Source: a virus. Taken from it: a DNA stretch of 29,840 nucleotides. Where the stretch lies: the IMG/VR virus record IMGVR_UViG_3300017755_000056; one strand, written 5' to 3'. The notes beneath the pieces were generated by a model. The model was given only the letters and a program-made list of their open reading frames with translations, was not told the origin of the DNA and made no database searches. Positions 2,441 through 14,872 of this stretch are shown here, piece by piece; positions within the stretch are counted from its first letter, which is position 1, and each line of letters opens with the position of its first letter. Both the position numbers and the translations under genes were made by a program.

Positions 2441-2560
2441 ATGAAACATAATACAATAGTAGAACTTCAAGGCGAGGTCTTGGAACTACAAGAGGAAAAT
2501 AGACAACTTAAAAATCAATTAAACATTCAAAACGGAATATATTATGTCAAAGACAGGTAG
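2441..2560 (+). CDS. Possible 39-aa coiled-coil peptide.
   Basis: Hand-read: MKHNTIVELQGEVLELQEENRQLKNQLNIQNGIYYVKDR. It overlaps the Erf start by 17 nt. Only length and position support it. Confidence 0.3.
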   Translation: MKHNTIVELQGEVLELQEENRQLKNQLNIQNGIYYVKDR

Positions 2561-3071
2561 TAACATTTATAACAAGCTCTTTAAATTACAGCAGGAAATA
2601 GGTGCAGTAAGCAAAGATGCTAATAACCCATTTTACAAATCAAAGTATTTTGATATAAATTCATTAATTAAACAACTAAACCCGTTATTAGCTAAACATA
2701 AATTATTATTAGTTCAACCTATAATGGATAATATGATTACAAGCAGAATTATTTGCATTGAAAATGGGGGTAGTGTTGATAGCAGTCTTACTTTACCAAA
2801 CATTAATGACCCACAAAAATTAGGGTCTGCTATTACTTACTATCGTAGATATACACTTGCAAGTTTATTAGGTTTACAAGCTATTGATGACGATGGAAAT
2901 TTAGCAAGTAACAAATCTACTATTCCAGATGATAAAAGATGGTTAAATCAAAACACACCTGAATACAACAAGGCTATTGAGTATTTAAAAGGGGGAGGAA
3001 ATTTAGAAAGTATACTATATAAATATAACGTTAATAAAAAAGTAGAACAAGAATTAAATAAAATAAATTAA
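2544..3071 (+). CDS. erf: Erf-family single-strand annealing protein (recombinase).
   Basis: NIYNKLFKLQQEIGAVSKDANNPFYKSKYFDINSLIKQLNPLLAKHKL and GSAITYYRRYTLASLLGLQAIDDDGN parallel P22 Erf (YARLAEIQ...FGKYKYRS...VKPLL; TSSYARKYCLNGLFGIDD). Confidence 0.85.
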   Translation: MSKTGSNIYNKLFKLQQEIGAVSKDANNPFYKSKYFDINSLIKQLNPLLAKHKLLLVQPIMDNMITSRIICIENGGSVDSSLTLPNINDPQKLGSAITYYRRYTLASLLGLQAIDDDGNLASNKSTIPDDKRWLNQNTPEYNKAIEYLKGGGNLESILYKYNVNKKVEQELNKIN

Positions 3072-3074: not shown

Positions 3075-3404
3075 ATGGATTTACAAGGAACTATTAAACA
3101 CATTATTGACCCCGTAAAAGTAAGCGACAAGCTAACTAAACAGCAAATGGTATTGACGATTGACGAAGATACGAAATACCCGCAAAACATTGCAATAGAA
3201 TTTTTAAACGATAAAATAGATATACTTAAAAAGTTTAAGGTAAATGAAAAAGTATCGGTAGGTGTTAATTTAAGGGGTAATGAATACAACGGTAAATATT
3301 ATAATAATATAGTTGGTTGGAAAGTTGCACAAATATTAAACAATGAAGTAACGAACTTGCAACAAAACCCTGAAAGAGAAACAACGGTTGATTTACCATT
3401 TTAA
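3075..3404 (+). CDS. DUF3127-family protein (putative OB-fold ssDNA-binding protein).
   Basis: MDLQGTIKHII...KQQMVLTIDEDTKYPQNIAIEFLNDKIDILKKFKVNEKVSVGVNLRGNEYNGKYYNNIVGWKV matches the DUF3127 pattern (M.i.G.i....YPq.i.f.f...........G..v.v.f.l.gre..gr.fn.i.aWk). Position after Erf. The SSB role is inference. Confidence 0.75.
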   Translation: MDLQGTIKHIIDPVKVSDKLTKQQMVLTIDEDTKYPQNIAIEFLNDKIDILKKFKVNEKVSVGVNLRGNEYNGKYYNNIVGWKVAQILNNEVTNLQQNPERETTVDLPF

Positions 3405-3408
3405 TTAA

Positions 3409-3433
3409 GAGGGGGTTTCGGCCCCTTTTTTTT
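3409..3433 (+). terminator. Rho-independent terminator.
   Basis: gggg-tttcgg-cccc hairpin (extendable by A-U/G-U pairs) followed by a T8 run. It has the same GGTTTCGGC loop context as the terminator at 2386. Confidence 0.75.
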
Positions 3434-3439
3434 ATATTT

Positions 3440-3595
3440 ATGTCTTTAAAAAAACTAAAGGAGGGTGAAAAATTTCCTTCAGACTTTTGGAATTATAATA
3501 TAAATCCTATATTGGGTTATGAATATAAAGAAGAAATACGTAATATACCAAAAGAAAAAATTAAATACGAACTAAACATAAACGAAATTAGGTGA
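3440..3595 (+). CDS. Hypothetical 51-aa protein.
   Basis: Hand-read: MSLKKLKEGEKFPSDFWNYNINPILGYEYKEEIRNIPKEKIKYELNINEIR. Its TGA overlaps the GTG start of the helicase gene (GTGA), implying translational coupling. Confidence 0.45.
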   Translation: MSLKKLKEGEKFPSDFWNYNINPILGYEYKEEIRNIPKEKIKYELNINEIR

Positions 3596-4506
3596 TAGCA
3601 CAAAGCAATAAAATAAAAAACAGAATATTTGACATTAAACACGGTCGGGTAAAAGAAGGTTTAAAAATAGGAATTCCCGAAATAGACGAATATTTAAGAT
3701 TAAAATATAGTGAAGGAAGTTTAAATTTAGCGATTGGACATAGTAACGTAGGTAAGACTACCGTCTTAGTTTATTTGTTTACATTATGGGCAATAAAACA
3801 TAATCTTAGGTTTTTAATATTTAGTAGTGAAAACACACCGCAAAGTATTGTGCGTAAAATAATAGAATTTAAAATGGGTAAGCCAATACACACGGCAAGC
3901 GAAGATTTAATAACTAAATCAATTAGTTGGGCGGATAATCATTTTAAAATAATTGATGCTGACAAAATATATACTTATGTTGAATTATTAAAAGAAGCTA
4001 AAGCAATAAAAGACGCATGGGATTATCAAGGTTTACTTATAGACCCATATAATAGTTTAGCTAGGGATTCAAGATTGGCGAAACAATACAACGGTTACGA
4101 ATATAATTACTATTGCCTTACCGAACTTAGATTATTTTCAAGACAAGAAAAAATTGCAATATGGGTAAATTGTCACGGTGTAACGGATGCGATGCGTAAG
4201 GTGTATGCAAGTGGACATGATTACGAGGGAATGGTAAGACCTTTAAATATGTCAGATGTTGAAGGAGGTGGTGCGTTTGGTAACCGAGCCGACGATGTGG
4301 TTTGTATTCACAGGATGACAAGCCACCCAAATGAATGGATGTTTAGCCATATAAACGTATTAAAGATAAAAGAAACCGAAACGGGCGGTCGATGTACGCC
4401 TTACGAACAACCAATTAAATTACGAATGGCATTAAATAATGTTGGGTTTGAATTTATGGGTAAAGACATAATACATGAAAAACCTTTAGAAAAAATTAAA
4501 TTTTAA
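3592..4506 (+). CDS. DnaB C-terminal-domain-type (RecA-fold) replicative helicase.
   Basis: Walker A GHSNVGKTT, FSSENTPQSIVRKII (compare DnaB FSLEMS..QL..R), Walker B GLLIDPYNSL, and arginine-finger-like GGGAFGNRADDVVCIHR (compare SG.IEQDAD.V..L.R). GTG start. No DnaB N-terminal domain. Confidence 0.75.
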   Translation: MIAQSNKIKNRIFDIKHGRVKEGLKIGIPEIDEYLRLKYSEGSLNLAIGHSNVGKTTVLVYLFTLWAIKHNLRFLIFSSENTPQSIVRKIIEFKMGKPIHTASEDLITKSISWADNHFKIIDADKIYTYVELLKEAKAIKDAWDYQGLLIDPYNSLARDSRLAKQYNGYEYNYYCLTELRLFSRQEKIAIWVNCHGVTDAMRKVYASGHDYEGMVRPLNMSDVEGGGAFGNRADDVVCIHRMTSHPNEWMFSHINVLKIKETETGGRCTPYEQPIKLRMALNNVGFEFMGKDIIHEKPLEKIKF

Positions 4507-4766
4507 TGGACGCAACTTTATTCTTATCACACCCTATTATACAAATATTTACTATGCTCATGCTTTTAGGCTTTTTATTTGTTATAATAGGTTTATCGGT
4601 AAACGCTGAAATAATATTAAGCCCAATTAAAGGATTTATGGCGGGCGCCTTAGTACACAACGAAACATACATAAACGAAGAAAATGAGGAGGTAACAGAA
4701 TATACGTTACAATGTTTAATCTTTTTTATTAGCGTTAATGTATTGTGGGAGAAGCGGAGTGGTTAA
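4506..4766 (+). CDS. Small membrane protein, 86 aa.
   Basis: Track ORF. Hydrophobic IIQIFTMLMLLGFLFVIIGL and a second hydrophobic C-terminal stretch. TAATG overlap with the helicase stop. Confidence 0.55.
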   Translation: MDATLFLSHPIIQIFTMLMLLGFLFVIIGLSVNAEIILSPIKGFMAGALVHNETYINEENEEVTEYTLQCLIFFISVNVLWEKRSG

Positions 4767-5290
4767 GTAAGGTGGCTAAACGGCATAAAGAATGGGTACA
4801 AATTGTTCGTTCATTTGGCGAATATGATTATGCTGAAGATATAGTACAACAGATGTACGAGGTTTTATATAAGTATGCTAATGAAACAAAAATTATTAAT
4901 AATGGTGTTGTTAGTCGGGGGTATGTTTATTTTACTTTACGTAGTATTTTTTTACAATATTGTAACGCTAAAAATAAAGTCAAAAAGGTTAGACTTGATG
5001 ACGAAGAAGATTACACGCAAATTGCAGACGATTCGGAAATGGATGAACAAATAGGATACAATAAAATATCTACATTAATAGATGACCATATAGACAAATG
5101 GCGATGGTATGATAAAACACTTTTTAGATTGTATAGGGATACGGATATGAGTATTAGAAAAATAGCCGAAGAAACTAACATAAGTTGGGTAAGTATATTT
5201 AACACATTAAAAAAGTGTAAACAAGAATTAAAAGAATTATTTAAAGAAGATTACGAGGATTTTAAAAACAATGATTATGACAGAATTTAA
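4745..5290 (+). CDS. ECF/sigma-70-family-like RNA polymerase sigma factor.
   Basis: Region-2-like YAEDIVQQMYEVLYKY...YFTLRSIFLQYCN and region-4 HTH-like LFRLYRDTDMSIRKIAEETNISWVSIFNTLKKCKQELKELF. The start is uncertain: GTG 4745 (track) or GTG 4772 just after the upstream stop. Confidence 0.6.
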   Translation: MGEAEWLSKVAKRHKEWVQIVRSFGEYDYAEDIVQQMYEVLYKYANETKIINNGVVSRGYVYFTLRSIFLQYCNAKNKVKKVRLDDEEDYTQIADDSEMDEQIGYNKISTLIDDHIDKWRWYDKTLFRLYRDTDMSIRKIAEETNISWVSIFNTLKKCKQELKELFKEDYEDFKNNDYDRI

Positions 5291-5693
5291 AGGGGACAAA
5301 AGAAGCAAAGAGTATAAGGCATGGAAAAAGAATTATGATAAAGCAAGTAAAGGTGTCGGCGATACGGTTGAAAAAATAACCAAGGCAACGGGAATTAAAA
5401 AAGCGGTTAAGTTTTTAGCAGGTGAAGATTGCGGCTGTGACGAACGTAAAGACAAGCTGAATTACTTATTTCCTTACGAAAGACCTTTATGCTTAACGGA
5501 AAATGAATTTAATTATTTATCAAAAATATTTAAAAGTAAAAAGAATCAAATTACACCTATCGAACAAACCGAATTATTAGATATCTACAATAGGGTATTT
5601 AAAGACAAAAGGGAATTAACAAGTTGCGGGTCATGTTTTTTAAATGGAGTGTTTAAAAGGTTGGAACGTATTTATAAAGAATATAATGAATAA
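5271..5693 (+). CDS. Hypothetical protein with Cys motifs, 140 aa.
   Basis: Track ORF. GVGDTVEKITKATGIKKAVKFLAGEDCGCDERKDKLN is a motif I recall from small conserved marine-phage proteins of unknown function. Second Cys pair CGSC. Confidence 0.6.
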   Translation: MIMTEFKGDKRSKEYKAWKKNYDKASKGVGDTVEKITKATGIKKAVKFLAGEDCGCDERKDKLNYLFPYERPLCLTENEFNYLSKIFKSKKNQITPIEQTELLDIYNRVFKDKRELTSCGSCFLNGVFKRLERIYKEYNE

Positions 5694-6000
5694 AAAAACA
5701 CACAACTTAAAACATATAAACTACCTTAATAACTTTGACATAATAGCTAATACTTTGCTAAAATGGCAAAAGAAAAAGCAAACCGATGTTGTTAATGATT
5801 TAATGGGTACGCTTATAGATATTAATTATTACGTTACGGAAATATACACAAATGAATTATATTTTAATCATACGGTCAACGAATATCGTGCAGACAAACT
5901 TCGAGCAATCCAAAGAGCAATTAACGCTGAAAATAAGATTAAAGAACTAGAAAAAGAAATACTTAAATTAAAAAATAAAATAAAAGTTTATGGGGGATAG
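5686..6000 (+). CDS. Hypothetical protein with a C-terminal coiled-coil, 104 aa.
   Basis: Track ORF trimmed to ATG 5686 (MNKKTHNL), which overlaps the upstream stop (ATGAATAA). C-terminal AENKIKELEKEILKLKNKIK. Confidence 0.55.
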   Translation: MNKKTHNLKHINYLNNFDIIANTLLKWQKKKQTDVVNDLMGTLIDINYYVTEIYTNELYFNHTVNEYRADKLRAIQRAINAENKIKELEKEILKLKNKIKVYGG

Positions 6001-6178
6001 TGTAAGTAAATATTACGAAAATTTAGATAGATATACAACAACAACTACTAATATGAAAGAAAGTAAATTAATTAAAATGCAAAACGATTTAAAGATTGCA
6101 CAACAAGCTTTAGTGGTTGCATTAGACAAAATTGAAAAGCTGGAACAAAAAGTTTTTGCAAAAGAAGATGTTAATTAA
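5990..6178 (+). CDS. Hypothetical coiled-coil protein, 62 aa.
   Basis: Track ORF that overlaps the previous stop. No motif recognised. Confidence 0.5.
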   Translation: MGDSVSKYYENLDRYTTTTTNMKESKLIKMQNDLKIAQQALVVALDKIEKLEQKVFAKEDVN

Positions 6179-6217
6179 ATATTAATAAGTATATTCGTAA
6201 CATAAAACAATATATAT

Positions 6218-6385
6218 ATGCACAGTTACGAAGAGCTTTTTTATAAAAGTTACACAACACAAGAATTAATTAATATTTTATCTAATCCAAAACATTTAAA
6301 TTCATTTAGGGCAAGGTGTAAAATTGAGCTTGACCGGAGGCAAAATAATGAAGGAAATGAATCAACAGAAATTATTGGGATATGA
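6218..6385 (+). CDS. Hypothetical 55-aa protein.
   Basis: Hand-read: MHSYEELFYKSYTTQELINILSNPKHLNSFRARCKIELDRRQNNEGNESTEIIGI. ATGA overlap with the next gene. Confidence 0.45.
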   Translation: MHSYEELFYKSYTTQELINILSNPKHLNSFRARCKIELDRRQNNEGNESTEIIGI

Positions 6386-6645
6386 ATATTTTAGAAGAAG
6401 CAAATAAAATTATTAATTTTCGCGCGGAAGAAAAAGAAAGGCAGTATGGGAAATTTAATGATTCAATGGCTAAAGCTGCTAAAATTGCTACCGAGTTATG
6501 TAATAAAAAAATTACTCCAGAAGATTTTTATAAGTGTATGATTGCTTTAAAAATTAGTAGAATGGCCTACAATAAAAAAGAAGATACTTTTTTAGATGCA
6601 GTGGCATATATAGCTGCATTAAATAATTACAATAATGATAAGTAA
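6382..6645 (+). CDS. Small conserved phage protein (resembles the DUF6378-type family seen in nucleotide-metabolism clusters).
   Basis: EKERQYGKFNDSMAKAAKIA...ITPEDFYKCMIALKISRMAY...DTFLDAVAYIA fits the pattern R..YG...sf..ia....t..d....m..lK..R.....D...D..gY. The family assignment is from memory only. Confidence 0.45.
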   Translation: MNILEEANKIINFRAEEKERQYGKFNDSMAKAAKIATELCNKKITPEDFYKCMIALKISRMAYNKKEDTFLDAVAYIAALNNYNNDK

Positions 6646-7393
6646 AGCTGAAAAAAAATATAAAAAGCTTTTATTAAAAGTTTTACAAAAAGGAGAAAAA
6701 ACTACAAATAGAACTCCAGTTAAAACAATTAAGTTATTTAATGAGTCGTTAAATATAAATTTACAAAAAGGCTTTCCAATAATTACTAGTAAAAAAATAT
6801 TTTTTACAAAAGCATTAGCTGAATTTAGGTGGATGTATGAGGGACGAACAGATTTACAATATTTAAATAATAATAAAGTAAACTGGTGGAATGAATTTGC
6901 TATAAATAATGCTTTAGGAAAAGTTTATGGATATCAAATAAAAAATTTTAATGGGACATATAATCAAATAGAATATTGCATTAAAGAAATAAAAAACAAT
7001 TCAAGAAGAGCAATAATAACATTGTGGAACCCTTGCGATTTAGATGAACAGGCTTTACCATGTTGCTTTACCCAAATGAATTTTGTAAGAAGTAATAATA
7101 AACTAAATCTTAGTGTTCATTTTAGAAGTTCGGATTTATTTTTAGGGTTGCCTTATGATATAATTGTAGCGGCCCTTTTTTTACACACAATAGCAAATAA
7201 AGTAAACTTAATCCCTTATAAGCTAGGATTAAATTTAGCGGACGGACATATTTATTTAAATCATTTAAAAAATGTAAATATATATTTAAAAAACAAAAGT
7301 TATGCACTTCCTATATTACAAGGAGGATATAACAATTATACTATAAAAAATTATATTTCAGAACAATATTTAAAAACACCTTTAATTAAATAA
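6635..7393 (+). CDS. Thymidylate-synthase-fold pyrimidine C5 methyl/hydroxymethyl-transferase. Asp at the Asn177-equivalent position suggests dCMP specificity.
   Basis: Full-length collinearity with ThyA: NRT, FPIITSKK, AEFRWM, LGKVYGYQ, NNSRRAIITLWN, ALPCCF (Cys144, 7064..7066), HFRSSDLFLGLPYDIIVAAL, DGHIYLNH, C-terminal LKTPLIK. PFN(177)IAS is replaced by PYD(175)IIV (GAT 7157..7159). Confidence 0.8.
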   Translation: MISKAEKKYKKLLLKVLQKGEKTTNRTPVKTIKLFNESLNINLQKGFPIITSKKIFFTKALAEFRWMYEGRTDLQYLNNNKVNWWNEFAINNALGKVYGYQIKNFNGTYNQIEYCIKEIKNNSRRAIITLWNPCDLDEQALPCCFTQMNFVRSNNKLNLSVHFRSSDLFLGLPYDIIVAALFLHTIANKVNLIPYKLGLNLADGHIYLNHLKNVNIYLKNKSYALPILQGGYNNYTIKNYISEQYLKTPLIK

Positions 7394-7397
7394 AATT

Positions 7398-7700
7398 ATG
7401 AATTTAAAAGTAGAATTCCAACCAATTAGAGATTGGGCAGATAGCAAAGGTATTTATGATAGTGGGGACCCGAAAACACAAGTAATAAAATTATTAGAAG
7501 AAGTAGGTGAACTATCTAAAGCAATATTAGAAAAGGATAAAGAGGGCATAGCAGATGCCATCGGGGATAGTGTTATAGTTTTAACTAGTTTAGCCCATTT
7601 ATGTAATATGACAATTGAACAATGTATTGAAGATGCGTATTATGAAATAAAGGATAGACAAGGTGAAATGAAAAATGGAACTTTTATAAAGAACAAATAA
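7398..7700 (+). CDS. MazG-type all-alpha nucleoside-triphosphate pyrophosphohydrolase.
   Basis: LLEEVGELSKAILEKDKEGIADAIGDSVIVLTSLA carries the EExxE...D metal-binding signature of MazG-like NTP-PPases. About 100 aa, the typical phage MazG size. Confidence 0.75.
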   Translation: MNLKVEFQPIRDWADSKGIYDSGDPKTQVIKLLEEVGELSKAILEKDKEGIADAIGDSVIVLTSLAHLCNMTIEQCIEDAYYEIKDRQGEMKNGTFIKNK

Positions 7701-8731
7701 TGAGAATAATAAGAAAAAAAGAAACTTGGAGACATATTACATTTCCTATAGACAAAATAGAATTTTTAAATTGGGCAAAAAAAGGTGTTCAAATTATATT
7801 AGAAGATAATAATAGCTACGATTTTGTAGAAAAAGAAGCAATAAAAGCATTGCATTTAAATATAAACCAATCTTATAATGGGCCCGGCTCCTGTTATATT
7901 GAAGTTCCTGTTATAAAGTCAATATTTATAAAAACGAAAAGAAAAGAAACAATACAGTTATTAAATGGTACTACTTATGATAAAATAGAATTACTTAATA
8001 AAATGTATGATGATTCTTTTTATTATGGAGAATTAGGCAAATATGCTTTAAGTTCTAGTGCAATTAAAAATTTAATAGATTCCCCTAAACAGTATGCGCG
8101 GTCACTAAATTATAAAACTGACACTTCTGTTTTTAAAACAGGAAGATTAATACATTTAGCAGCTTTAGAGCCAGACAAGCTTGAAACCTTATGCCATGTA
8201 GTTGAAGTGCAGTCGGCAGTTACTAAAAAATATAAAGATAAGGTAAAAGAAATTGGGGACGCAAGTTTTATATTTACTAGGAAAGAATATGATAAGGCCA
8301 TGTATACTGTTGATGCGTTATTACAAAATGATGTATGGCAAGAAATGACGCGCGGTGCTAAATTTGAACAGCCGGGATTTGATATAATAAAAGGGTATCC
8401 TTTTCGGGCGAAAGCAGACGTGCTAGGGACAAACTACATAGCTGATTTAAAAACAACTTCGGATTTAAAAAATTTTGAATGGAATGCTAAAAAGTATTCT
8501 TATGATGTGCAATTGTATATATATTGCAATGTGTTTAAAATAGATTACCAAGATTTTAGTTTTTTTGCAATAGATAAAGCAACAGGGGATTTAGGAATTT
8601 ATGATGTTACTAAAAACTTTTTTGATTCTGGTAAACAAAAATTTGAAAGAGGCTTGGAAATATATGAAAAGTTTTTTGTAAAACAAGAAGAGGAATTAAA
8701 CTCTTACGTTATAAAAGGAATTCTTAATTAG
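7700..8731 (+). CDS. PD-(D/E)XK exonuclease (RecE/exonuclease VIII-like PDDEXK domain) with an N-terminal region of about 110 aa of unknown function.
   Basis: FRAKADVLGTNYIADLKTTSDLKNFEWNAKKYSYDVQLYIY gives the D...(D/E)LK...Y..Q..Y pattern of DUF3799/Cas4-RecE-like nucleases. A plausible partner of the Erf annealase. Confidence 0.65.
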   Translation: MRIIRKKETWRHITFPIDKIEFLNWAKKGVQIILEDNNSYDFVEKEAIKALHLNINQSYNGPGSCYIEVPVIKSIFIKTKRKETIQLLNGTTYDKIELLNKMYDDSFYYGELGKYALSSSAIKNLIDSPKQYARSLNYKTDTSVFKTGRLIHLAALEPDKLETLCHVVEVQSAVTKKYKDKVKEIGDASFIFTRKEYDKAMYTVDALLQNDVWQEMTRGAKFEQPGFDIIKGYPFRAKADVLGTNYIADLKTTSDLKNFEWNAKKYSYDVQLYIYCNVFKIDYQDFSFFAIDKATGDLGIYDVTKNFFDSGKQKFERGLEIYEKFFVKQEEELNSYVIKGILN

Positions 8732-8904
8732 TGAATAAACGAATAGTAAAAGAATTTTATTTACTTGCACTTATAGATTTTCAACATGGTGTAAGTATGC
8801 AAGAAATGAAAGAAACGTTAAGAATGTACGAAGATATAGAAGATTATGAAGCGTGTCAAGGAATACAAAAAGCAATAAAAGAATATGAAAATTCAAGAAA
8901 TTAA
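8731..8904 (+). CDS. Possible 57-aa protein (GTG start).
   Basis: Hand-read: VNKRIVKEFYLLALIDFQHGVSMQEMKETLRMYEDIEDYEACQGIQKAIKEYENSRN. The GTG overlaps the upstream TAG by 1 nt and the 3' end overlaps the next gene by 20 nt. The EDYEAC..I.KAI motif is UVR-motif-like. Confidence 0.3.
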   Translation: MNKRIVKEFYLLALIDFQHGVSMQEMKETLRMYEDIEDYEACQGIQKAIKEYENSRN

Positions 8905-9307
8905 AAATTTAATAGAAGAAAAAACTAAACTTAAATTAAATACAAATAGTAGATTACAACATTTAGTTTATACAAGGGCGATATTATTTGCATTGTGTAA
9001 GAAATACACAACGTCAACATTATACGAAATAGGTAAAATAGTAGGACGTGACCATGCTTCCGTATTACACGGAATAAAACTTTACAACGAAGTATTAATA
9101 AGATACGACGACCAATATAAAGAACTATATAACGACATAGAATTTAAAATAAGAATCAACTTAAAACTAACACTTAAACATAAAGACCTAAATTACTACA
9201 AACATAAATTTGGTAAGATATTAGTAGAACATAGACAAGCGTTACTAGAAAACCGAACCTTATATAATTACATAAATAAGAACTTACAAGAAAAGGTAAA
9301 TGTATAA
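8885..9307 (+). CDS. DnaA-domain-IV-like helix-turn-helix DNA-binding protein (replication initiation or regulator candidate).
   Basis: LVYTRAILFALCKKYTTSTLYEIGKIVGRDHASVLHGIKLYNEVL parallels the DnaA C-terminal domain (R.iAMYL.r.lT..Sl..IG..FGgRDHTTVlHA..ki). Confidence 0.6.
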   Translation: MKIQEIKNLIEEKTKLKLNTNSRLQHLVYTRAILFALCKKYTTSTLYEIGKIVGRDHASVLHGIKLYNEVLIRYDDQYKELYNDIEFKIRINLKLTLKHKDLNYYKHKFGKILVEHRQALLENRTLYNYINKNLQEKVNV

Positions 9308-9373
9308 ACCTTTTGTAGATGTCTGAAGTATTTGCATTTATATATATTGTTGGTATTGTTACCTTATTAATAG

Positions 9374-9404
9374 CTTTGTTTTTTAACAAAGAATAGTTTT
9401 TTTT
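9374..9404 (+). terminator. Weak AT-rich hairpin plus T8 (possible terminator between the early and packaging operons).
   Basis: ctttgtt-tttt-aacaaag perfect 7-bp stem (9374..9391), then aatag and T8 (9397..9404). The AT-only stem makes it weak. Confidence 0.35.
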
Positions 9405-9415
9405 ATTGTATATAT
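9403..9415 (+). promoter_or_regulatory. TTATTGTATATAT element (candidate late promoter), 21 nt upstream of the terS-like ATG.
   Basis: The exact 13-mer is also present at 20999..21011 and 23270..23282. It lies in the 129-nt gap before the packaging genes. Confidence 0.45.
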
Positions 9416-9436
9416 GAATAATCAAGTTTTATCAAG

Positions 9437-9667
9437 ATGAAACACGGTGGCAAAAGAAAAGGGGCGGGGCGTAAATCTAAAGCCGACGAAATAAACCTAA
9501 TAGAGAAATTATCGCCATTAGAAGATTCCGCATTCATGGCATTAAAAGACGGTGTTGAAAAAGGCGATTTTAAATACGTACAATTATTTTACAATTACTA
9601 CGCAGGAAAACCAAGGGAAACAAGGGATATTACAATCAACGAGGACATTCCGTTGTTTGTAGATTAG
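9437..9667 (+). CDS. terS: Putative small terminase subunit / DNA-binding protein.
   Basis: N-terminal MKHGGKRKGAGRKSK (the GG.R.GAGRK motif is common in TerS-like proteins). 76 aa, immediately upstream of TerL with a 1-nt gap. Confidence 0.55.
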   Translation: MKHGGKRKGAGRKSKADEINLIEKLSPLEDSAFMALKDGVEKGDFKYVQLFYNYYAGKPRETRDITINEDIPLFVD

Positions 9668-9668
9668 T

Positions 9669-10835
9669 ATGCACGTAAAAAAAACAAAAGCACTTACTAC
9701 ATTACGGCAATTAAAGAACCGAACACGTATAGTACGTGGCGGCACATCAGCGGGTAAGACTATTTGTATTCTTACAATATTAATAGATTATGCAATTATA
9801 AATGAAGGTAAGGAAGTAAGCGTAGTATCCGAAAGCATACCACACTTGCGTAGAGGTGCTTTAAAAGACTTCTTAGGTATCTTAAAGGGTTTGCATAGGT
9901 ATAAGGATAGTCAATTCAATAAAAGCACCTTAAAGTACACCTTTACAAACGGAAGTTATATTGAGTTCTTTAGTACAGACCAACCTGATAAACTAAGAGG
10001 TGCTAGGCGGACCGATATATTTATTAATGAGTGTAACAATATACCCTTTGATTCTTATCAACAATTAGCAATAAGAACATCGGGAAATATATGGTTAGAC
10101 TATAATCCTACTAATTTGTTTTGGGTAGATAAAGAACTAATAGGACAACCCGACACGGATTTTGTTACACTTACTTATAAAGACAACGATAGCTTACCAC
10201 AAAGCATAGTAAAGGAATTACTAAAAGCAAGGGACAAAGGAAAGACATCTACCTATTGGAGGAATTGGTGCCGTGTTTACCTTGATGGGGAAATTGGAAG
10301 TTTAGAGGGGGTGTGTATACCCGATTGGAAAGAAATAGATACAATACCACAAGATGCAAGAATATTATCTTATGGCATGGACTTCGGATATGTTGACCCT
10401 CATGTAATTATTTCACTTTACAAATGGAATGATGCTTATATATTCGATGAAGTGTTTTATAAATCGAATGTAGTGTTAAGGGATGTGAGTTTATTTTTAA
10501 AACAAAACAACATAAAAGAAAATATAATTGCCGATAGTGCTGAACCCAAATCAATAGAAAAATTAAGACGTGATGGACATAATATATACCCATGTGCAAA
10601 AGGTCGTGATAGTGTAAACTTTGGAATCAACCTAATAAATCAAAACGAAATATACATTACGAGTAAAAGCCGAAACCTAAAAAGGGAATTACAAGGATAT
10701 GTGTGGGCAAAGGATAAGGATGGTAACACATTACCAAAACCAAGTGGTGAACATCCCGATTGTATAGATGCTTGTCGATATGTATTAACCGATACACTAG
10801 ATAATCAACATAGGGGCGAATATCATATTTATTAA
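9669..10835 (+). CDS. terL: Terminase large subunit (Terminase_3/PBSX XtmB-like).
   Basis: Walker A VRGGTSAGKT, Walker B-like DIFINECNNI. C-terminal RNaseH-like nuclease acidic residues in MDFGYVDPHV, IIADSAEPKSI and HPDCIDACRYV. Confidence 0.85.
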   Translation: MHVKKTKALTTLRQLKNRTRIVRGGTSAGKTICILTILIDYAIINEGKEVSVVSESIPHLRRGALKDFLGILKGLHRYKDSQFNKSTLKYTFTNGSYIEFFSTDQPDKLRGARRTDIFINECNNIPFDSYQQLAIRTSGNIWLDYNPTNLFWVDKELIGQPDTDFVTLTYKDNDSLPQSIVKELLKARDKGKTSTYWRNWCRVYLDGEIGSLEGVCIPDWKEIDTIPQDARILSYGMDFGYVDPHVIISLYKWNDAYIFDEVFYKSNVVLRDVSLFLKQNNIKENIIADSAEPKSIEKLRRDGHNIYPCAKGRDSVNFGINLINQNEIYITSKSRNLKRELQGYVWAKDKDGNTLPKPSGEHPDCIDACRYVLTDTLDNQHRGEYHIY

Positions 10836-10909
10836 AAATATTTTGTTTATTATTTGTTAATTAAAAAAAAAGTTGTATATTTACATCATAAACATTAAAA
10901 CAATAAAAA

Positions 10910-11047
10910 ATGAAAGAATACAATTTGCTTTACACAAAGTTTCAAAATGGAACAATAACAAAGGCACAACAAAAAAGATTATTTGATTTAGCTTTTGGTG
11001 TAGAATTTATGGAAAATAAAAATCCAAATAAAAAATGGAGAGAATAA
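10910..11047 (+). CDS. Hypothetical 45-aa protein in a terminator-bounded mini-cassette.
   Basis: Hand-read: MKEYNLLYTKFQNGTITKAQQKRLFDLAFGVEFMENKNPNKKWRE. It is followed 8 nt later by a strong terminator. Confidence 0.4.
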   Translation: MKEYNLLYTKFQNGTITKAQQKRLFDLAFGVEFMENKNPNKKWRE

Positions 11048-11055
11048 AAACAAGA

Positions 11056-11077
11056 GGGGTAGCAATACCCCTTTTTT
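11056..11077 (+). terminator. Rho-independent terminator.
   Basis: ggggta-gcaa-tacccc perfect 6-bp stem with a GNRA-type loop, then T6. Confidence 0.8.
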
Positions 11078-11094
11078 AATTTAAAACACAAAAC

Positions 11095-11250
11095 ATGAAA
11101 AAAGACTTTATAATTATTTGGAAAGATATATCCGCAAAGGATAATCGCAAAACAATACTAAAAGTTGCAAAAGACTTTAGTTTATTTCTAATGTGTATAT
11201 ACATAGGTATTTTTGCATTTATTAAGGTATTATTTTGGATATGGTATTAA
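11095..11250 (+). CDS. Small membrane protein, 51 aa.
   Basis: Hand-read: MKKDFIIIWKDISAKDNRKTILKVAKDFSLFLMCIYIGIFAFIKVLFWIWY, with a C-terminal TM segment. It overlaps the next ORF. Confidence 0.45.
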   Translation: MKKDFIIIWKDISAKDNRKTILKVAKDFSLFLMCIYIGIFAFIKVLFWIWY

Positions 11251-11486
11251 ATAAAGAATTTGTAGAACATTATATTAGAAGAAAGTGGTGTTGGGATAAT
11301 AACATATTTATATACCCGCACGTTTTAGAACGCAAAGCTAAATCTAATATTAAAATAGAAATAGACATTGACGGAAACAAGCAGTTAGGCGAAGAAGTAT
11401 ATAAACAAAATAAATCGGGGCAATTAAAATATTCAAAAAAAGTACATGAATTATATGATTATTTGTATATTGCATTAAAGAAATAA
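11241..11486 (+). CDS. Hypothetical protein, 81 aa.
   Basis: Track ORF. ATG 11241 is preferred to the TTG at 11235. No motif recognised. A terminator follows. Confidence 0.55.
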   Translation: MVLNKEFVEHYIRRKWCWDNNIFIYPHVLERKAKSNIKIEIDIDGNKQLGEEVYKQNKSGQLKYSKKVHELYDYLYIALKK

Positions 11487-11511
11487 TTTTTCGTTTGATT
11501 GTTTGGTTAAG

Positions 11512-11537
11512 GGGTAGCAGAGATGTTACCCTTTTTT
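11512..11537 (+). terminator. Rho-independent terminator.
   Basis: gggtagc-agagat-gttaccc stem (7 bp including one G-U), then T6. Confidence 0.7.
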
Positions 11538-11559
11538 GTTATACATAATCTAATAAATT

Positions 11560-11572
11560 TTATTGTATTAAT
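11560..11572 (+). promoter_or_regulatory. TTATTGTATTAAT element abutting ATG 11573 (TATTG-N7-ATG).
   Basis: Read directly. TATTG lies at -12..-8 relative to the ATG, the same spacing as at 18717, 23271 and 26143. A TTTG sits 19 nt upstream of the 8-mer TTTTATTG. Confidence 0.45.
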
Positions 11573-12235
11573 ATGAAAGTAAACATTTACGTACCCGAAA
11601 GCTTATCGGATATTACATTAGAACAATATCAAAAGTTTGCAAAGTTAAACACGGAGGAAAACAGCAACAGTAATTTCCTTTTGCATAAGATGGTAGAGAT
11701 ATTTTGCAACCTTGATTTAAAGGATATTGCAAGAATCAAATTTACGGACGTACAAGCCATTATAAATGACCTTAACGGGATGTTTAATCAAAAGACACCC
11801 CTTATACCCATCTTTAAATTAAAGGGCATAGAATACGGCTTTATACCAAAGCTTGACGATATTAGTTTAGGCGAATATATAGACCTTGATAATACGTTGT
11901 CCGATTGGGAAACAATGCATAAGGCGATGAGTGTTCTTTATAGACCGATTACAATACAAAAGAACCATAGGTATCAAATAGAAGATTACACCAACCAAGA
12001 CAAAGCCGACACGTTTAAAGATATGCCTTTAGATGTTGTCATGGGTAGTCTTGTTTTTTTTTGGAATTTAAGCAACGAATTACTACAAACTACCCTGAAT
12101 TATTTGAGCAAAGAGATGGGGGAGAACCTGACTACGGAGCAACGGCTAATTTTGGAACAAAGTGGGGTTGGTATCAGTCAATTTACGGAATCGCTAAAGG
12201 GGATATTACCAAGTTCGATGAGGTTACCAACTTAA
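11573..12235 (+). CDS. Tail-assembly-chaperone-like protein, zero-frame (G-like) product, 220 aa.
   Basis: Track ORF. Two similar halves (ITLEQYQKFAKL... / ISLGEYIDLDN...HKAMSVLYRPI). It contains a T9 run where the overlapping -1 ORF opens. The chaperone call rests mainly on this G/GT-like architecture. Confidence 0.6.
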   Translation: MKVNIYVPESLSDITLEQYQKFAKLNTEENSNSNFLLHKMVEIFCNLDLKDIARIKFTDVQAIINDLNGMFNQKTPLIPIFKLKGIEYGFIPKLDDISLGEYIDLDNTLSDWETMHKAMSVLYRPITIQKNHRYQIEDYTNQDKADTFKDMPLDVVMGSLVFFWNLSNELLQTTLNYLSKEMGENLTTEQRLILEQSGVGISQFTESLKGILPSSMRLPT

Positions 12236-12315
12236 ACATACATAAGTCTTTGATGTTTTTAGCATTTGAAAAAGAAAAGTTAGAACTAGAAAAAAAACTA
12301 ATTAAAAGGAAATGA
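11573..12315 (+). CDS. Predicted -1 frameshift fusion (GT-like) product, about 247 aa. Frame 0 to 12061, then the -1 frame 12061..12315.
   Basis: The -1 frame has a TAG at 12046..12048 and opens at 12049. The slippery T TTT TTT lies at 12055..12061 in frame 0 (GTT TTT TTT TGG). The -1 ORF (..LEFKQRITTNYPELFEQRDGGEPDYGATANFGTKWGWYQSIYGIAKGDITKFDEV..) ends with an ATGA overlap onto the next gene. Confidence 0.5.
12054..12062 (+). other. T9 homopolymer, candidate -1 programmed ribosomal frameshift slippery site.
   Basis: Read directly: cttg ttttttttt ggaa. The X XXY YYZ heptamer is satisfied in the zero frame. Confidence 0.55.
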
Positions 12316-12770
12316 AAGGGTTTTATAACGTAACGGATAAATTAAAAACAAAACTACAAGAAGAACCTTTTGTTAATACGGTTTCTTTCGGTTCAATAGA
12401 CGATGTTGATTTAGATAAACAAAGCATATTCCCGCTCGCTCATGTGATAGTAAACAACGCTATTGTAGGAACTAAAACAACAACATTTAATATATCTATT
12501 CTTGCAATGGACATAGTTGATATATCTAACGATAAGGTCACCGATGTGTTTGTAGGAAACGACAACGAACAAGACGTATTAAATACACAATTAGCTTTAC
12601 TTACAAGGGTAATAAACGATTTACAAAGGGGAGACTTATATACGGAAATGTATCAAGTGCAATCCGACGTAAGTTGTGAGCCGTTTGTGGATAGGTTCGA
12701 AAACAAACTAGCGGGTTGGACTGCGTCCTTTGATGTAGTAATACAAAACGATATGACAATTTGCGACTAA
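12312..12770 (+). CDS. Virion protein, possible head-tail connector/neck component, 152 aa.
   Basis: Track ORF. ATGA-coupled to the frameshift ORF and TAATG-coupled to the gp10-like gene. The assignment is by position only. Confidence 0.35.
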   Translation: MKGFYNVTDKLKTKLQEEPFVNTVSFGSIDDVDLDKQSIFPLAHVIVNNAIVGTKTTTFNISILAMDIVDISNDKVTDVFVGNDNEQDVLNTQLALLTRVINDLQRGDLYTEMYQVQSDVSCEPFVDRFENKLAGWTASFDVVIQNDMTICD

Positions 12771-13282
12771 TGACATTTGAACAAACAAAACAAGCTTTAG
12801 AAATATTTGCTAAATCCGTTATTAAGCAATCAAAGGGTAACTTACGTAGACACCGAAACAATAAGTTTATTACGGGTTCGTCTAGTGGGGACTTAGAGGG
12901 AAGCTTAGGATATGATTTAAACGTAAGTCCAAATAGTTTTAGCTTAGAATTTTATATGGCAGATTACGGTATTTATCAAGACGAAGGTGTTAAGGGGGCG
13001 GAAAGCACTTACGATAAAAGTCGCAATAGTAGATTCCAATATAAAAAGATGCCACTTAATACACAAGCTAAAGGGTCGATACAAAAGTGGATAAAAGAAA
13101 AAGGATTAAAAGGAAATATAAATAGTCTTACTTATGTGATTGCAAGAAGTATATATAGAAAAGGATTAAGAGCTAGTTTCTTTTTTACTAAACCGTTTGA
13201 AGATAATTACTTAAAAATGCCTGATGAACTTATAGAAAAGTTTGCATTAGATATTGATAACTTTTTAGATTATACAACGTGA
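12770..13282 (+). CDS. HK97 gp10-like tail-completion/head-tail joining protein.
   Basis: ALEIFAKSVIKQSKGNLRR...TGSSSGDLEGSLGYDL...EFYMADYGIYQDEGV resembles the HK97 gp10 family pattern (..a....TG.L..Si......v.v.....Ya.y.E.G). ATG 12770 (TAATG overlap) is preferred to the TTG at 12761. Confidence 0.5.
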   Translation: MTFEQTKQALEIFAKSVIKQSKGNLRRHRNNKFITGSSSGDLEGSLGYDLNVSPNSFSLEFYMADYGIYQDEGVKGAESTYDKSRNSRFQYKKMPLNTQAKGSIQKWIKEKGLKGNINSLTYVIARSIYRKGLRASFFFTKPFEDNYLKMPDELIEKFALDIDNFLDYTT

Positions 13283-13827
13283 TAAGAGCAAGAAGCCCTT
13301 TTTTTATAGAACATGAGGAATCGTCAGCACCTACGGTACTACCAAGGTTTACTTGCGCGGATACTTCTATCACGGGATTGTCGATTGCAGCAAACGGAAC
13401 TATAACAAACCCATCCGTAAGTGTTGGAACATTACATAGCGTAGAACCAACAAGCTTTGGCACCGTAAGCACCGCAACTATAAGGAACGTGTTGGTTTAT
13501 GTAACATACGATTCAAGTAACTTTAGACCCCCAACCGATTCAAGTAATCAAATAGCTTGTCCCGTTCAATTTACACAACCAGCGACAACCGTAACAGCAT
13601 CACAGAAAAACTTTAGAGTAACAAACAATAGCACAACCCAAACGGCTTTTTTACAATACACAGCTTTTGATGGTAGTGTTCAAATTAATCACACTATGCA
13701 ACCTTCGGAAACCGTTGATATATGTGTTGCACCATTTGATTCGGAGACCGCAGGTTATCCAACGGTAATTGGTGATGCTACATATTTCGATTTAGTACAA
13801 GGATGCACAACAGATACACTTAGTTAA
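13279..13827 (+). CDS. Structural protein with a T/S/V-rich beta-domain paralogous to repeats in ORF 19763..20974.
   Basis: GTG start in a GTGA overlap. N-terminus MIRARSPFFIEHEE. Domain FTCADTSITGLSIAANGTITNPSVSVGTLHSVEPTSFGTVSTATIRN...ACPVQFTQP. Confidence 0.6.
   Translation: MIRARSPFFIEHEESSAPTVLPRFTCADTSITGLSIAANGTITNPSVSVGTLHSVEPTSFGTVSTATIRNVLVYVTYDSSNFRPPTDSSNQIACPVQFTQPATTVTASQKNFRVTNNSTTQTAFLQYTAFDGSVQINHTMQPSETVDICVAPFDSETAGYPTVIGDATYFDLVQGCTTDTLS
13288..13305 (+). repeat. GCAAGAAGCCC + T-run, copy 1 (encodes ARSPFF).
   Basis: The exact 11-mer gcaagaagccc at 13288..13298 plus T7 repeats at 13842..13852 (plus g and T8). Confidence 0.8.
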
Positions 13828-13829
13828 TT

Positions 13830-13880
13830 ATGAGAATATACGCAAGAAGCCCGTTTTTTTTACAATTTAATAGCACTTAA
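13830..13880 (+). other. Orphan 16-codon mini-ORF MRIYARSPFFLQFNST, duplicating the N-terminus of ORF 13279.
   Basis: Hand-read in the 55-nt gap before ATG 13883. It shares ARSPFF and the 11-mer gcaagaagccc with 13279..13305. Confidence 0.35.
13842..13861 (+). repeat. GCAAGAAGCCC + T-run, copy 2.
   Basis: gcaagaagccc g tttttttt, read directly. Partner at 13288..13305. Confidence 0.8.
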
Positions 13881-13882
13881 TT

Positions 13883-14872
13883 ATGCCCGTACTAGATAGA
13901 GCCGAATTACAATTATATATTTACGATGGAACGTCGGGGGCTTATGCCACAACTGACCTTAAATATACATTATCAAAGTCAAGAATTTCGTCGCAAGACA
14001 ATATCCTATTTGAGATAAGCGAACTTGTAAGAGATTATATTGACCAAACTTTTAACAATGACTATTTAAGCAAAACTAAATGGGTGTCCGCAATAACTAG
14101 ATTATACGATTCAGATGGAACGGAGTTTGCTACGGGTAGCCCTGTAACAAATCACTATTTAGCTTTAGATGGTTATGGGTATTTTGAAGATGGTATAAAC
14201 CCGCAACTATCCGATAACCTATTAATGAGTAATACACGTATATACTTACCCGAAAACACGGCGGGTAAATTACCGATTCTTGTAGCGGGAGTTGGGAAGG
14301 TTATAATAGATAGTGCAACAACACAAGTTACTGATAATGGTAATTCAAATCAAAAAATACAATATCTTACAATCCCTGCTAATAGTAATACAATACTAGT
14401 TTACGATACGGACGACGCTACTTTACTTGCAACGGTAAATGTTGAAAACGTATGCGAACCGAAATTTACACCCTATAAGGTTACTTTCGTAAATAAGCAC
14501 GGGGCTTACCAAGACGTTTATATGTTTAAAAAGAGTGTTGAGAATATGAATGTAAGCGACGAAGTTTATAAAGCTAATATTATAAACGCATCTTCACTTA
14601 CTTACGCAACATATAAAGGGCAACAAGAAAGATACAATGTAAGTGCAACTAAATCTTTACAAATGAATACGGGGTTTGTAAATGAGGATTTTAATCAAGC
14701 TATTGAAGAACTTTTACTTTCCGAAAACGTTTGGATTCGATGGGAAGGTAAAACACTACCCGTGCTTGTTAAAACTAAAGACATGACTTACAAAACTTCA
14801 TTAAACGACAAATTAATAAATCATACGTTACAGTTTGAATTTGCATTTAGCAAAATTAACAATATTAAATAA
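13883..14872 (+). CDS. Tail/baseplate structural protein (distal-tail-protein-like candidate), 329 aa.
   Basis: Track ORF. TAATG-coupled to the 713-aa tail protein gene. Assignment by size and position only. Confidence 0.4.
   Translation: MPVLDRAELQLYIYDGTSGAYATTDLKYTLSKSRISSQDNILFEISELVRDYIDQTFNNDYLSKTKWVSAITRLYDSDGTEFATGSPVTNHYLALDGYGYFEDGINPQLSDNLLMSNTRIYLPENTAGKLPILVAGVGKVIIDSATTQVTDNGNSNQKIQYLTIPANSNTILVYDTDDATLLATVNVENVCEPKFTPYKVTFVNKHGAYQDVYMFKKSVENMNVSDEVYKANIINASSLTYATYKGQQERYNVSATKSLQMNTGFVNEDFNQAIEELLLSENVWIRWEGKTLPVLVKTKDMTYKTSLNDKLINHTLQFEFAFSKINNIK

Follow-up and report, generated by a model that had tools for sequence, protein, structure and literature searches.

The IMG/VR virus record IMGVR_UViG_3300017755_000056 was analysed over its whole length of 29,840 nucleotides (hereafter the window). 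The window (~29.8 kb, against ~30-34 kb for related contigs) is most of a marine phage genome of ~30-34 kb. Three consecutive open reading frames (ORFs) were confirmed on its plus strand; they encode a DUF6378 protein, a thymidylate synthase (TS) homologue carrying Asp where Escherichia coli ThyA has Asn177, and a small MazG-type pyrophosphohydrolase (Table 1). The TS homologue is predicted to be a deoxycytidylate (dCMP) C5-methyltransferase, and together with its two neighbours it lies in a block that is exchanged between closely related phages.

Table 1. Features of the swapped block and its genes (positions in the 29,840-nucleotide window)
Feature	Position	Strand	Content or evidence
Swapped-in variable slot	6328..8731	+	3' end of a 55-aa ORF, DUF6378, Asp-type TS homologue, MazG, 343-aa PDDEXK exonuclease
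DUF6378 protein, 87 aa, five-helix	6382..6645	+	Pfam PF19905 (5.4e-16); TS start overlapped by 11 nt
ThyA-fold TS homologue, 252 aa	6635..7393	+	Pfam, phmmer, AlphaFold2, Foldseek; predicted dCMP C5-methyltransferase (5-methyl-dCMP synthase)
Active-site strand codons	7055..7069	+	Leu141 (= E. coli Leu143), Pro142, Cys143 (= Pro145), catalytic Cys144 (= Cys146, TGC 7064-7066), Phe145 (= His147)
Specificity segment F163-R-S-S-D167-L-F-L-G-L-P-Y174-D175	7121..7159	+	Invariant residues, ungapped alignment
Small MazG-type all-alpha NTP pyrophosphohydrolase, 100 aa	7398..7700	+	Pfam, PHROG; putative reaction dCTP to dCMP + pyrophosphate
343-aa PDDEXK protein (DUF3799, exonuclease VIII-like)	7700..8731	+	Pfam DUF3799 (1.1e-20); PHROG 412 (1.6e-26)

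The TS homologue matched Pfam family PF00303 (Thymidylat_synt) with an E-value of 3.5e-62 (210 bits; cut-off 24.3), and phmmer matched it to E. coli ThyA chains at 2.8e-38. By these scores, its likeness to ThyA is far beyond chance. An AlphaFold2 model built with 36 homologues as input had a predicted local distance difference test score (pLDDT) of 94.6 and a predicted template-modelling score of 0.93. Foldseek superposed this model on E. coli ThyA with a template-modelling (TM) score of 0.92 over 261 columns (261/264 E. coli residues, C-terminus included), whereas viral models similar to gp42, the dCMP hydroxymethylase of phage T4, scored only ~0.7. These results bear out the claim of a preliminary description of this DNA that the ORF is collinear with ThyA over its whole length. 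The closest solved structures overall were canonical ThyA. Sequence identity was 34% to E. coli ThyA (reference 264/264 identical to PDB 1aob), 21% (1e-7) to T4 gp42, and 23-24% to the Xp12/PaMx74 type. Among 50,697 phage records, the best match was to the uncultured Mediterranean podovirus MedDCM-OCT-S28-C10 (48-51% identity). A scan of 185,579 bacterial and archaeal species-representative genomes revealed no relative of the window TS.

The conserved TS motifs were found at residues 25 (NRT), 62 (AEFRWM), 94 (LGKVYGYQ), 121 (NNSRRAIITLWN), 140 (ALPCCF) and 162 (HFRSSDLFLGLP), followed in the C-terminal half by GLPYDIIV (171), DGHIYLNH (203) and LKTPLIK (246), the last aligned with ...IKAPVAI at the end of E. 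coli ThyA. All of these, and the codons of Cys144 and of Asp175 (GAT 7157-7159), lay where the preliminary description had placed them. In HMMER alignments against thymidylate synthases, 'flglpYDi' lay ungapped on 'flgvpFNi' and 'alpCCf' on 'alpPCh'; FRSSDLFLGLPYDIIV lay gap-free on (Q)RSaDvFLGvPFNIAS, and ALPCCF on AL(p/a)PCH. MAFFT alignment with E. coli ThyA paired Asp175 with Asn177, Cys144 with Cys146, Phe145 with His147, Phe163 with Gln165 and Leu141 with Leu143, and within the specificity segment Arg164, Ser165, Asp167 and Tyr174 corresponded to Arg166, Ser167, Asp169 and Phe176. The equivalence of Asp175 to Asn177 is drawn from this ungapped sequence block, which lies inside a confidently modelled helix; the earlier reading of Phe for His147 likewise held. 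The signature of the window enzyme is L-C-C-F/F-R-D/Y-D, against L-P-C-H/Q-R-D/F-N in E. coli. Three residues of canonical thymidylate synthase (EC 2.1.1.45) are replaced: Asn177 by Asp175, Gln165 by Phe163, and His147, which follows the catalytic Cys, by Phe145. In the ThyA structure, Asn177 contacts O4/N3 of uracil and is oriented by Gln165. E. coli numbering is used below unless the window residue is named.

We examined these positions in 120 homologues with 56-96% identity to the window TS. All 120 had Asp177, Phe165, Tyr176, Asp169 and Arg166. Tyr or Phe at 147 and the Cys-Cys pair were each found in 119, and position 143 was Leu in 115 (Leu or Ile in 119). Equivalents of Arg21, Glu58, Trp80, Tyr94, Arg126/127, Cys146, Arg166, Ser167, Asp169, His207 and Tyr209 were present in the window enzyme and invariant in 119-120 of the 120. 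A search of 1.84 billion representatives (50% identity) gave 279 proteins with E-values below 1e-30. Asp at 177 and Tyr at 147 were common to the 11 nearest full-length representatives, 10 of which had a residue other than Gln at 165; canonical L-P-C-H/Q-R-D/F-N sequences began only at ~1e-43. Position 177 was Asp in 47 and Asn in 100 of the best 150 representatives. In a rough neighbour-joining tree, the window enzyme fell in a clade with Asp in 19 of 20 members, sister to the MedDCM-OCT-S28-C10 TS, whose signature is L-C-C-Y/F-R-D/Y-D. Judged from these alignments, Asp at 177 is a fixed feature of the clade that co-varies with Gln165 to Phe, His147 to Tyr/Phe and Phe176 to Tyr, and is not noise. 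The motif R-S-S-D-x-F-x-G-L-P-Y-D is common to the window, Xp12 and PaMx74 TS homologues; by alignment, the window TS is a ThyA-like lineage sharing the Xp12/PaMx74 specificity signature. This TS type was found in 315 IMG/VR stretches and in many contigs from Tara, JGI and ENA. In L089 (10254-11001), a near-identical contig from JGI, the TS was called as two ORFs (99 and 151 aa), and the blastn alignment of its 2.3-kb cassette segment with the window contained 11 gap positions; the split could reflect either a natural frameshift or a fault in the assembly. In another contig (L090), the TS/MazG region was broken by 482 N.

Published residue rules allow a product to be predicted. According to the literature as cited in PMC8670742 and PMC13326640, the N177D substitution moves TS from dUMP to dCMP, and metavirome contigs with and without cytosine modification were best told apart by positions 177 and 147 (PMC8670742). 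Hydroxymethylases are recognised by an acidic residue in place of Leu143, and 5-hydroxy-dCMP synthases by the change D169N (PMC13326640). In TS the C-terminal tail closes the active site so that hydride can be transferred, a tail that T4 dCMP hydroxymethylase does not have (PMC6400193), and a Ser/Arg pair favours dCMP over CMP, the deoxyribonucleotide over the ribonucleotide (PMC5175136). The window enzyme has Asp177, Leu143, Asp169, the C-terminal tail and the Ser/Arg pair. It lacks the features of the gp42 type (an acidic residue at Leu143, no tail, gp42-like sequence), and it lacks the Asn for Asp169 of 5-hydroxy-dCMP synthases of the RB69 gp48 type, its Asp167 being invariant. Because all five features are kept, the enzyme reads as a 5-methyl-dCMP synthase. 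5-Methyldeoxycytidine (5mdC) was made in vivo by 5 of 7 metavirome Asp-type TS homologues and by the Xp12 enzyme (bioRxiv 10.1101/2024.12.05.627091). From the residue rules and the tested enzymes that share this signature, we infer that the window TS is very probably directed to dCMP, and that a dCMP-directed enzyme of this kind would likely transfer a methyl group. The predicted product is 5-methyl-dCMP, not 5-hydroxymethyl- or 5-hydroxy-dCMP. The preliminary description had weakly preferred methyl over hydroxymethyl transfer, a preference now supported by Leu143, Asp169, the TS-like tail and the full-length superposition on ThyA. It had overstated the novelty, since Asp-type TS homologues making 5-methyl-dCMP (Xp12 and metavirome enzymes) were already described and tested (bioRxiv 10.1101/2024.12.05.627091).

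The gene after the TS encodes a protein matching Pfam PF03819 (1e-5; 26.2 bits, cut-off 22) and PHROG 1992 and 715, 'MazG-like pyrophosphatase' (3e-31 and 1e-28). Its acidic residues E34, E35, E38, D53 and D57 were invariant in 59 relatives. The earlier assignment to the MazG type therefore stands. BLASTP against T4 gp56, with which it had been compared, gave no meaningful similarity, so that the parallel is one of function only and not of sequence; by analogy with gp56 and with DCTPP1, the protein may act on deoxycytidine triphosphate (dCTP). The window MazG is a short, domain-only form; in most relatives the last 100 aa of a longer protein (250-310 aa) make up the MazG (L004:6349-7110, L130:10768-11589 and others). 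A GIY-YIG-like domain was suspected in the ~155-aa N-terminal part of the long form (MKTYYIYRN..KIGCT...), which had no Pfam or PHROG match.

The DUF6378 protein was modelled by AlphaFold2 as five helices (pLDDT 90.7), and Foldseek of this model against PDB gave no match below E=0.7. A profile-profile comparison showed no kinship with the MazG family (hhalign probability 0.5%), phmmer against PDB gave only a spurious PPR repeat match, and when 24 members were scanned against Pfam at lax thresholds, a suspected resemblance to DUF1599 found no support. The papers found to mention DUF6378 use it as an annotation label only. The region marked out in the preliminary description contains real ORFs; DUF6378 lies inside its coordinates, and its place as a conserved member of the gene group had been missed.

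The gene neighbourhood was compared in 80 IMG/VR loci fetched through the TS. MazG directly followed the TS in 79 of them, and DUF6378 directly preceded it in 64; the link of TS and MazG noted earlier is thus real. In a second set of 51 loci fetched with a broader Asp-clade profile (TS homologues 36-69% identical), the same MazG (42-63% identical) was present in 48, and 2 others had an unrelated pyrophosphatase. The MazG and TS pair occurred on varied backbones, on contigs of up to ~67 kb, and beside ribonucleotide reductase genes (judged by eye) on contigs of 47-67 kb. These findings indicate that TS, DUF6378 and MazG form a cassette. The 80 loci contained no homologue of the deaminase, TMP kinase or DNA polymerase of MedDCM. 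Pfam and PHROG scans of 40 ORFs revealed no kinase or deaminase, and the window has no DNA polymerase or glycosyltransferase either. A six-frame scan of the window for P-loop and deaminase zinc motifs returned only the helicase, the terminase and one spurious 41-aa ORF, and among full-length window ORFs a P-loop occurred only in the helicase and terminase. A contrast group of Asp-TS phages of the deaminase/kinase type came to only 2-3 loci, too few to use. An Asp-type TS closer to ThyA, with Gln165 retained (VQRSGDLFLGIPYD) and a C-terminal ...KVAI, was observed in L130, L131, L133, L136, L138, L141, L142 and L143, which are IMG/VR contigs of 38-67 kb showing no palindrome avoidance. Its flanks, with ORFs read by eye, appear to hold a primase-helicase, the long MazG, a second small protein with an EELMDA motif and a ribonucleotide reductase.

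The genomic setting of the cassette was compared in 32 sibling loci, fetched through the window terminase (74-95% identical) and spanning helicase/sigma to terminase. This TS was present in only 3 of them. In the closest sibling, L144, blastn showed 91-95% identity over the flanks (window 3222-6327 and 8732-20654), and window 6328-8731 had no counterpart. In its place L144 has another exonuclease together with, at 4355-5726, a 254-aa ParB-like protein that had no Pfam match and a 208-aa N6_N4 DNA methyltransferase (Pfam 2.6e-20) with a DPPY motif. A third content of the slot was found in L191 (5174-8007), where DUF6378 is followed by a T4-type DNA alpha-glucosyltransferase (AGT; Pfam AGT 1.6e-16, PDB 1xv5 1e-25), a short TS homologue resembling gp42, and finally MazG and the exonuclease, both as in the window. 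The L191 TS homologue (32% identity to T4 gp42, 4e-17) lacks the tail; it carries DTPCT and FGFCND motifs, with Asp both at 177 and three positions ahead of the Cys. By tblastn, L218 carries the same AGT (97% identical), DUF6378 and MazG, and its TS homologue is indicated by that search only; L176 (1423-2632) has the L191 arrangement without the glucosyltransferase. The MazG of the hydroxymethylase and glucosyltransferase cassettes is 64-67% identical to that of the window. The window PDDEXK exonuclease is 66% identical to the exonuclease of the hydroxymethylase cassette and only ~40% to those of cassette-less siblings; it travels with the cassette and probably serves recombination rather than nucleotide metabolism. 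The hydroxymethylase cassettes also hold an 86-aa protein beside the gp42-like enzyme and MazG, and just upstream of the L191 cassette (4585-4854) lies an 89-aa protein with a MazG-like 'EELMDA' motif. A Walker-A-like 'ASGCTGKT' in the L191 DUF6378 is absent from the window and L176 copies and was taken as chance.

Because DUF6378 and MazG also frame the gp42-like hydroxymethylase cassettes of siblings, they are generic partners of two chemically different dCMP-modifying enzymes. L191, L218 and L176 encode neither a P-loop kinase nor a polymerase. A DNA glucosyltransferase is pointless unless 5-hydroxymethylcytosine (hmC) reaches DNA. That the glucosyltransferase siblings also lack kinase and polymerase argues for host enzymes being sufficient in this system, and the main objection to incorporation of 5-methylcytosine (5mC) by the window phage is weakened. 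A pure role in dTMP supply is disfavoured because the slot of siblings holds a hydroxymethylase with a DNA glucosyltransferase. By analogy, the slot context supports a role of the cassette in DNA-cytosine modification. The preliminary description had conceded that it recognised no deoxynucleoside monophosphate (dNMP) kinase, glucosyltransferase or dCMP deaminase; none was found in the window, yet this gap is partly closed by the AGT and gp42-like enzyme of kinase-less siblings, and the nearest sibling has a DNA methyltransferase. That description had recognised the TS and MazG gene pair correctly but not the whole block as a swapped-in module.

Restriction-site statistics were examined for traces of a protective modification. 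GATC was the only site totally absent from the window (0 against 35.6 +/- 5.9 expected). CCGG occurred 5 times (at 6334, 7884, 8372, 20855 and 26654) against 33.7 +/- 5.1 expected, a ~7-fold depletion, and these two were the most depleted of all 256 tetramers. GCGC, CGCG and GGCC were ~3-5-fold low, and A/T-only palindromes were not strongly avoided (AATT modestly low, z -4.7). Half of the CCGG, GGCC, GCGC and CGCG sites lay inside 6200-8731 (8.5% of length), which argues for recent import of the block, since half of the GC-only palindromes sit in the 2.4-kb swapped block. Cassette-bearing relatives avoided CATG, CTAG or GATC in a lineage-specific manner; L144 and the window showed no CATG or CTAG avoidance, unlike most siblings, and PaMx74 showed no palindrome avoidance. 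In the family sharing at least 70% identity in the large terminase, the 23 loci without the TS had on average 3.8 strongly avoided 4-bp palindromes each, the 7 with the methyl-type TS had 1.7 (one-sided Mann-Whitney p=0.0035), and the 2 with hydroxymethylase plus glucosyltransferase had 0; the loci are few and not phylogenetically independent. This gradient lends weak support to a protective modification. The absence of GATC and depletion of CCGG had been considered as evidence against modification. This argument was withdrawn because the backbone pattern is inherited and common to the cassette-less L144, because avoidance is weaker in carriers than in cassette-less siblings, and because full 5mC substitution in Xp12 DNA leaves this one 4-bp palindrome, GATC, open to cleavage by MboI and DpnII (PMC7653180, Table S3).

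We favour, at a probability of roughly 60%, a reading in which a ThyA-fold, folate-dependent dCMP C5-methylase stands at the centre of a mobile DUF6378-TS(Asp)-MazG cassette and yields progeny DNA containing 5mC. MazG would hydrolyse dCTP to dCMP, feeding the methylase and lowering the competing dCTP pool as T4 gp56 does. The TS homologue would then convert dCMP to 5-methyl-dCMP with methylenetetrahydrofolate as carbon and hydride donor, and host nucleotide kinases would raise the product to 5-methyl-dCTP. The phage has a DnaB-like helicase and no polymerase, and the host replisome would incorporate the modified nucleotide. Progeny DNA would carry 5mC in place of some or all cytosine, with protection from restriction as the outcome; we lean towards the product ending up in virion DNA. 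A bolder extension, which we regard as doubtful, is that the three genes DUF6378, Asp-type TS and MazG are sufficient for 5mC replacement in a ~30-kb phage lacking kinase and polymerase, with DUF6378 as a generic modification component and a slot that is hot-swappable among 5mC, glucosyl-hmC and DNA methyltransferase modules. In that case, DUF6378 might act by diverting a kinase of the host, by inhibiting a host deaminase or by countering modification-dependent restriction.

Several observations weigh against the favoured reading. The substrate assignment rests on residue rules and not on close homology to a tested enzyme, as the window TS shares only 23-24% identity with the proven Xp12/PaMx74 enzymes and 34% with ThyA of E. 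coli. Two of the 7 tested Asp-type enzymes gave no 5mdC (bioRxiv 10.1101/2024.12.05.627091). No gene recognisable as a dNMP kinase, dCMP/dCTP deaminase or DNA polymerase occurs in the window or in the 80 related loci, and a phage dNMP kinase was co-expressed in the E. coli assays to bring modified dC into DNA (PMC13326640; bioRxiv 10.1101/2024.12.05.627091). Of the two metal-binding acidic motifs of MazG proteins, EExxE is present as E34-E35-x-x-E38, but the second, D53-A-I-G-D57, has Ala where YpjD and SSO3215 have Glu (ExxD). Carriers of methyl-type cassettes still avoid CATG, CTAG and GATC, with at least one strongly avoided palindrome in 49 of 66 loci, yet NlaIII, FatI, CviAII, BfaI, MspI and HpaII do not cut fully 5mC Xp12 DNA (PMC7653180, Table S3). 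Because carriers avoid sites whose enzymes spare 5mC DNA, protection would be incomplete, recent or irrelevant to host enzymes. The avoidance gradient itself comes from the small, related sample noted above.

An alternative that keeps the dCMP chemistry is that the cassette shapes the nucleotide pool, with dCTP converted through dCMP to 5-methyl-dCMP, which a host dCMP deaminase would turn into dTMP, so that virion DNA retains ordinary cytosine. Such a second route to thymidylate would suit an AT-rich genome (window GC 26-39%, ~67% AT overall) and the lack of a phage kinase or polymerase to carry 5-methyl-dCMP into DNA, and Xp12-type phages do deaminate part of their 5-methyl-dC nucleotide pool to dTTP (bioRxiv 10.1101/2024.12.05.627091). 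It is also in line with the continued avoidance of C-containing restriction sites by cassette carriers, although that avoidance is weaker than in cassette-less siblings. With no deaminase in the window or the 80 loci, the route would depend wholly on the host, and a canonical Asn-type TS would be the simpler means to that end. In siblings, moreover, DUF6378 and MazG enclose a hydroxymethylase with a DNA alpha-glucosyltransferase, or a DNA methyltransferase occupies the slot instead, which points to DNA modification and not to dTMP supply. We consider this explanation unlikely. A still smaller chance, put at about one in twenty, falls to an ordinary thymidylate synthase converting dUMP to dTMP, with Asp as a tolerated variant: Asp in 120 of 120 homologues, co-varying with loss of Gln165 and His147, is hard to reconcile with tolerance, and the 100 Asn representatives among the best 150 mostly have the LPCH/QRD/FN pattern that the window lacks. 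The N177D mutants described in the literature cited in PMC8670742 and PMC13326640 lose their dUMP preference and methylate dCMP, and deaminases beside Asp-type TS prefer 5-methyl-dC nucleotides (bioRxiv 10.1101/2024.12.05.627091). What speaks for dUMP is that the source annotations of the homologues and of the closest phage record say thymidylate synthase, that the nearest solved structures are canonical, and that the MedDCM relative adjoins genes annotated as 'dCMP deaminase' and 'dTMP kinase'.

The remaining explanations change the group added to C5. A dCMP hydroxymethylase with gp42-like chemistry, making 5-hydroxymethyl-dCMP and hmC DNA, would share Asp at the Asn177 position with T4 gp42 and would parallel the hydroxymethylase and glucosyltransferase cassette of siblings. 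These siblings (L191, and L218 by tblastn) use a different, short gp42-like TS homologue, however, and the window has no glucosyltransferase; its enzyme has Leu rather than Asp or Glu three residues before the catalytic Cys, keeps the TS-type C-terminal tail, and is nearer to ThyA than to gp42 in both identity (34% against 21%) and fold (TM 0.92 against ~0.7). This makes a hydroxymethylase very unlikely. Still less credence is given to a dCMP enzyme adding another C5 group, or to one acting on another pyrimidine nucleotide, which would mean that the residue rules do not transfer to this lineage. TS homologues making 5-hydroxy-dCMP were recently found (PMC13326640), Cys-Cys for Pro-Cys and Phe at 165 fall outside the published rules, and 2 of the 7 tested Asp-type enzymes gave no 5mdC (bioRxiv 10.1101/2024.12.05.627091). 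Nevertheless, D169N is absent and Asp167 invariant, the folate-binding residues and methyl-transfer tail are intact, and the Ser/Arg residues selecting deoxyribose are kept (PMC5175136).

Comparison with characterised systems places the predicted 5-methyl-dCMP synthase among known chemistries. The Xp12 and PaMx74 enzymes (5-methyl-dCMP synthases of phages with fully 5mC DNA) share with it the ThyA superfamily, Asp177, RSSDxFxGLPYD, a non-acidic residue before the Cys and Asp169, and the same reaction is predicted; they differ by an insert of ~25 residues, by having Pro follow the Cys and by their C-terminus. In place of DUF6378 and MazG, they have as neighbours genes for a deaminase, dihydrofolate reductase, a HAD hydrolase and a phage DNA polymerase. 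The metavirome Asp-type TS homologues (MetaGPA, PMC8670742; bioRxiv 10.1101/2024.12.05.627091) and that of the uvMED podovirus MedDCM resemble the window in residues 177 and 147 and in a nearby PRA-PH/MazG-type pyrophosphatase, but in their loci the partners of the TS are a deaminase, a kinase similar to TMP kinase and a family-A DNA polymerase, none of which occurs in the window family, where DUF6378 is present instead. The T4 set of gp56, gp42 and alpha-glucosyltransferase follows the same logic of a dCTP-clearing pyrophosphatase with a TS-family dCMP modifier; unlike gp42, the window enzyme is ThyA-like and keeps Leu143 and the C-terminal tail, and unlike T4, the window has no gp1-type dNMP kinase and no phage polymerase. 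In E. coli ThyA N177D and Lactobacillus casei TS N229D, a single Asn to Asp change gives a dCMP methylase, as reported in the literature cited in PMC8670742. These engineered mutants lack the additional fixed changes Q165F, H147F/Y, F176Y and P145C of the window enzyme, which presumably optimise dCMP chemistry. Already known, then, are Asp-type TS homologues as 5-methyl-dCMP synthases, their link with MazG/PRA-PH proteins and their association with modified phage DNA. Less ordinary are the minimal cassette without kinase and polymerase, the DUF6378 partner, and the exchange of the cassette, between near-identical genomes, for a glucosyl-hmC module or a DNA methyltransferase.

If 5mC does enter the progeny DNA, a very abundant marine phage group would have fully or partly 5-methylated DNA. 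This would affect restriction-based and methylation-aware sequencing of marine viromes, host-range prediction (type II versus type IV restriction) and estimates of nucleotide-pool rewiring. The slot comparison offers a natural experiment on the minimal number of genes for base replacement at the nucleotide level and flags DUF6378 as a partner worth testing. As regards substrate, the label 'thymidylate synthase' that these genes bear in public annotation is probably mistaken.

The rest of the window encodes NinG, Erf, a single-stranded DNA-binding protein, a DnaB-like helicase, a sigma-like protein, a DnaA-C-like helix-turn-helix (HTH) protein, the large terminase, portal, protease, tape-measure-like and fibre proteins (Pfam/PHROG). 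A 29.9-kb Tara Oceans scaffold was 94-97% identical to the window over most of the aligned length and 92% in one segment. The nearest cultured phages are P12024S and P12024L of Nonlabens (Flavobacteriia), for which a 37% portal match is the sole link; neither has a TS. A marine host among the Flavobacteriia is likely for cassette-bearing phages. The 181-aa product of window 4745-5290 is conserved in the family and has weak sigma-factor/HTH matches (PHROG 1740 1e-4; Pfam UPF0122 9e-6). At the corresponding position a Nonlabens phage encodes a sigma-70 region-2 protein, and the window product is accordingly a candidate phage-encoded sigma-like transcription factor. A ~95% identical Tara scaffold (L088) carries a 92-aa SET-domain gene (8142-8420) between the DnaA-C-like gene and a 76-aa ORF preceding the large-terminase gene; this gene is absent from window 9307-9437. 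Where the window has the Erf recombinase (2535-3021), L088 has an unrelated 107-aa gene (1581-1863). These differences in the SET-domain gene and Erf are further module swapping in the family.

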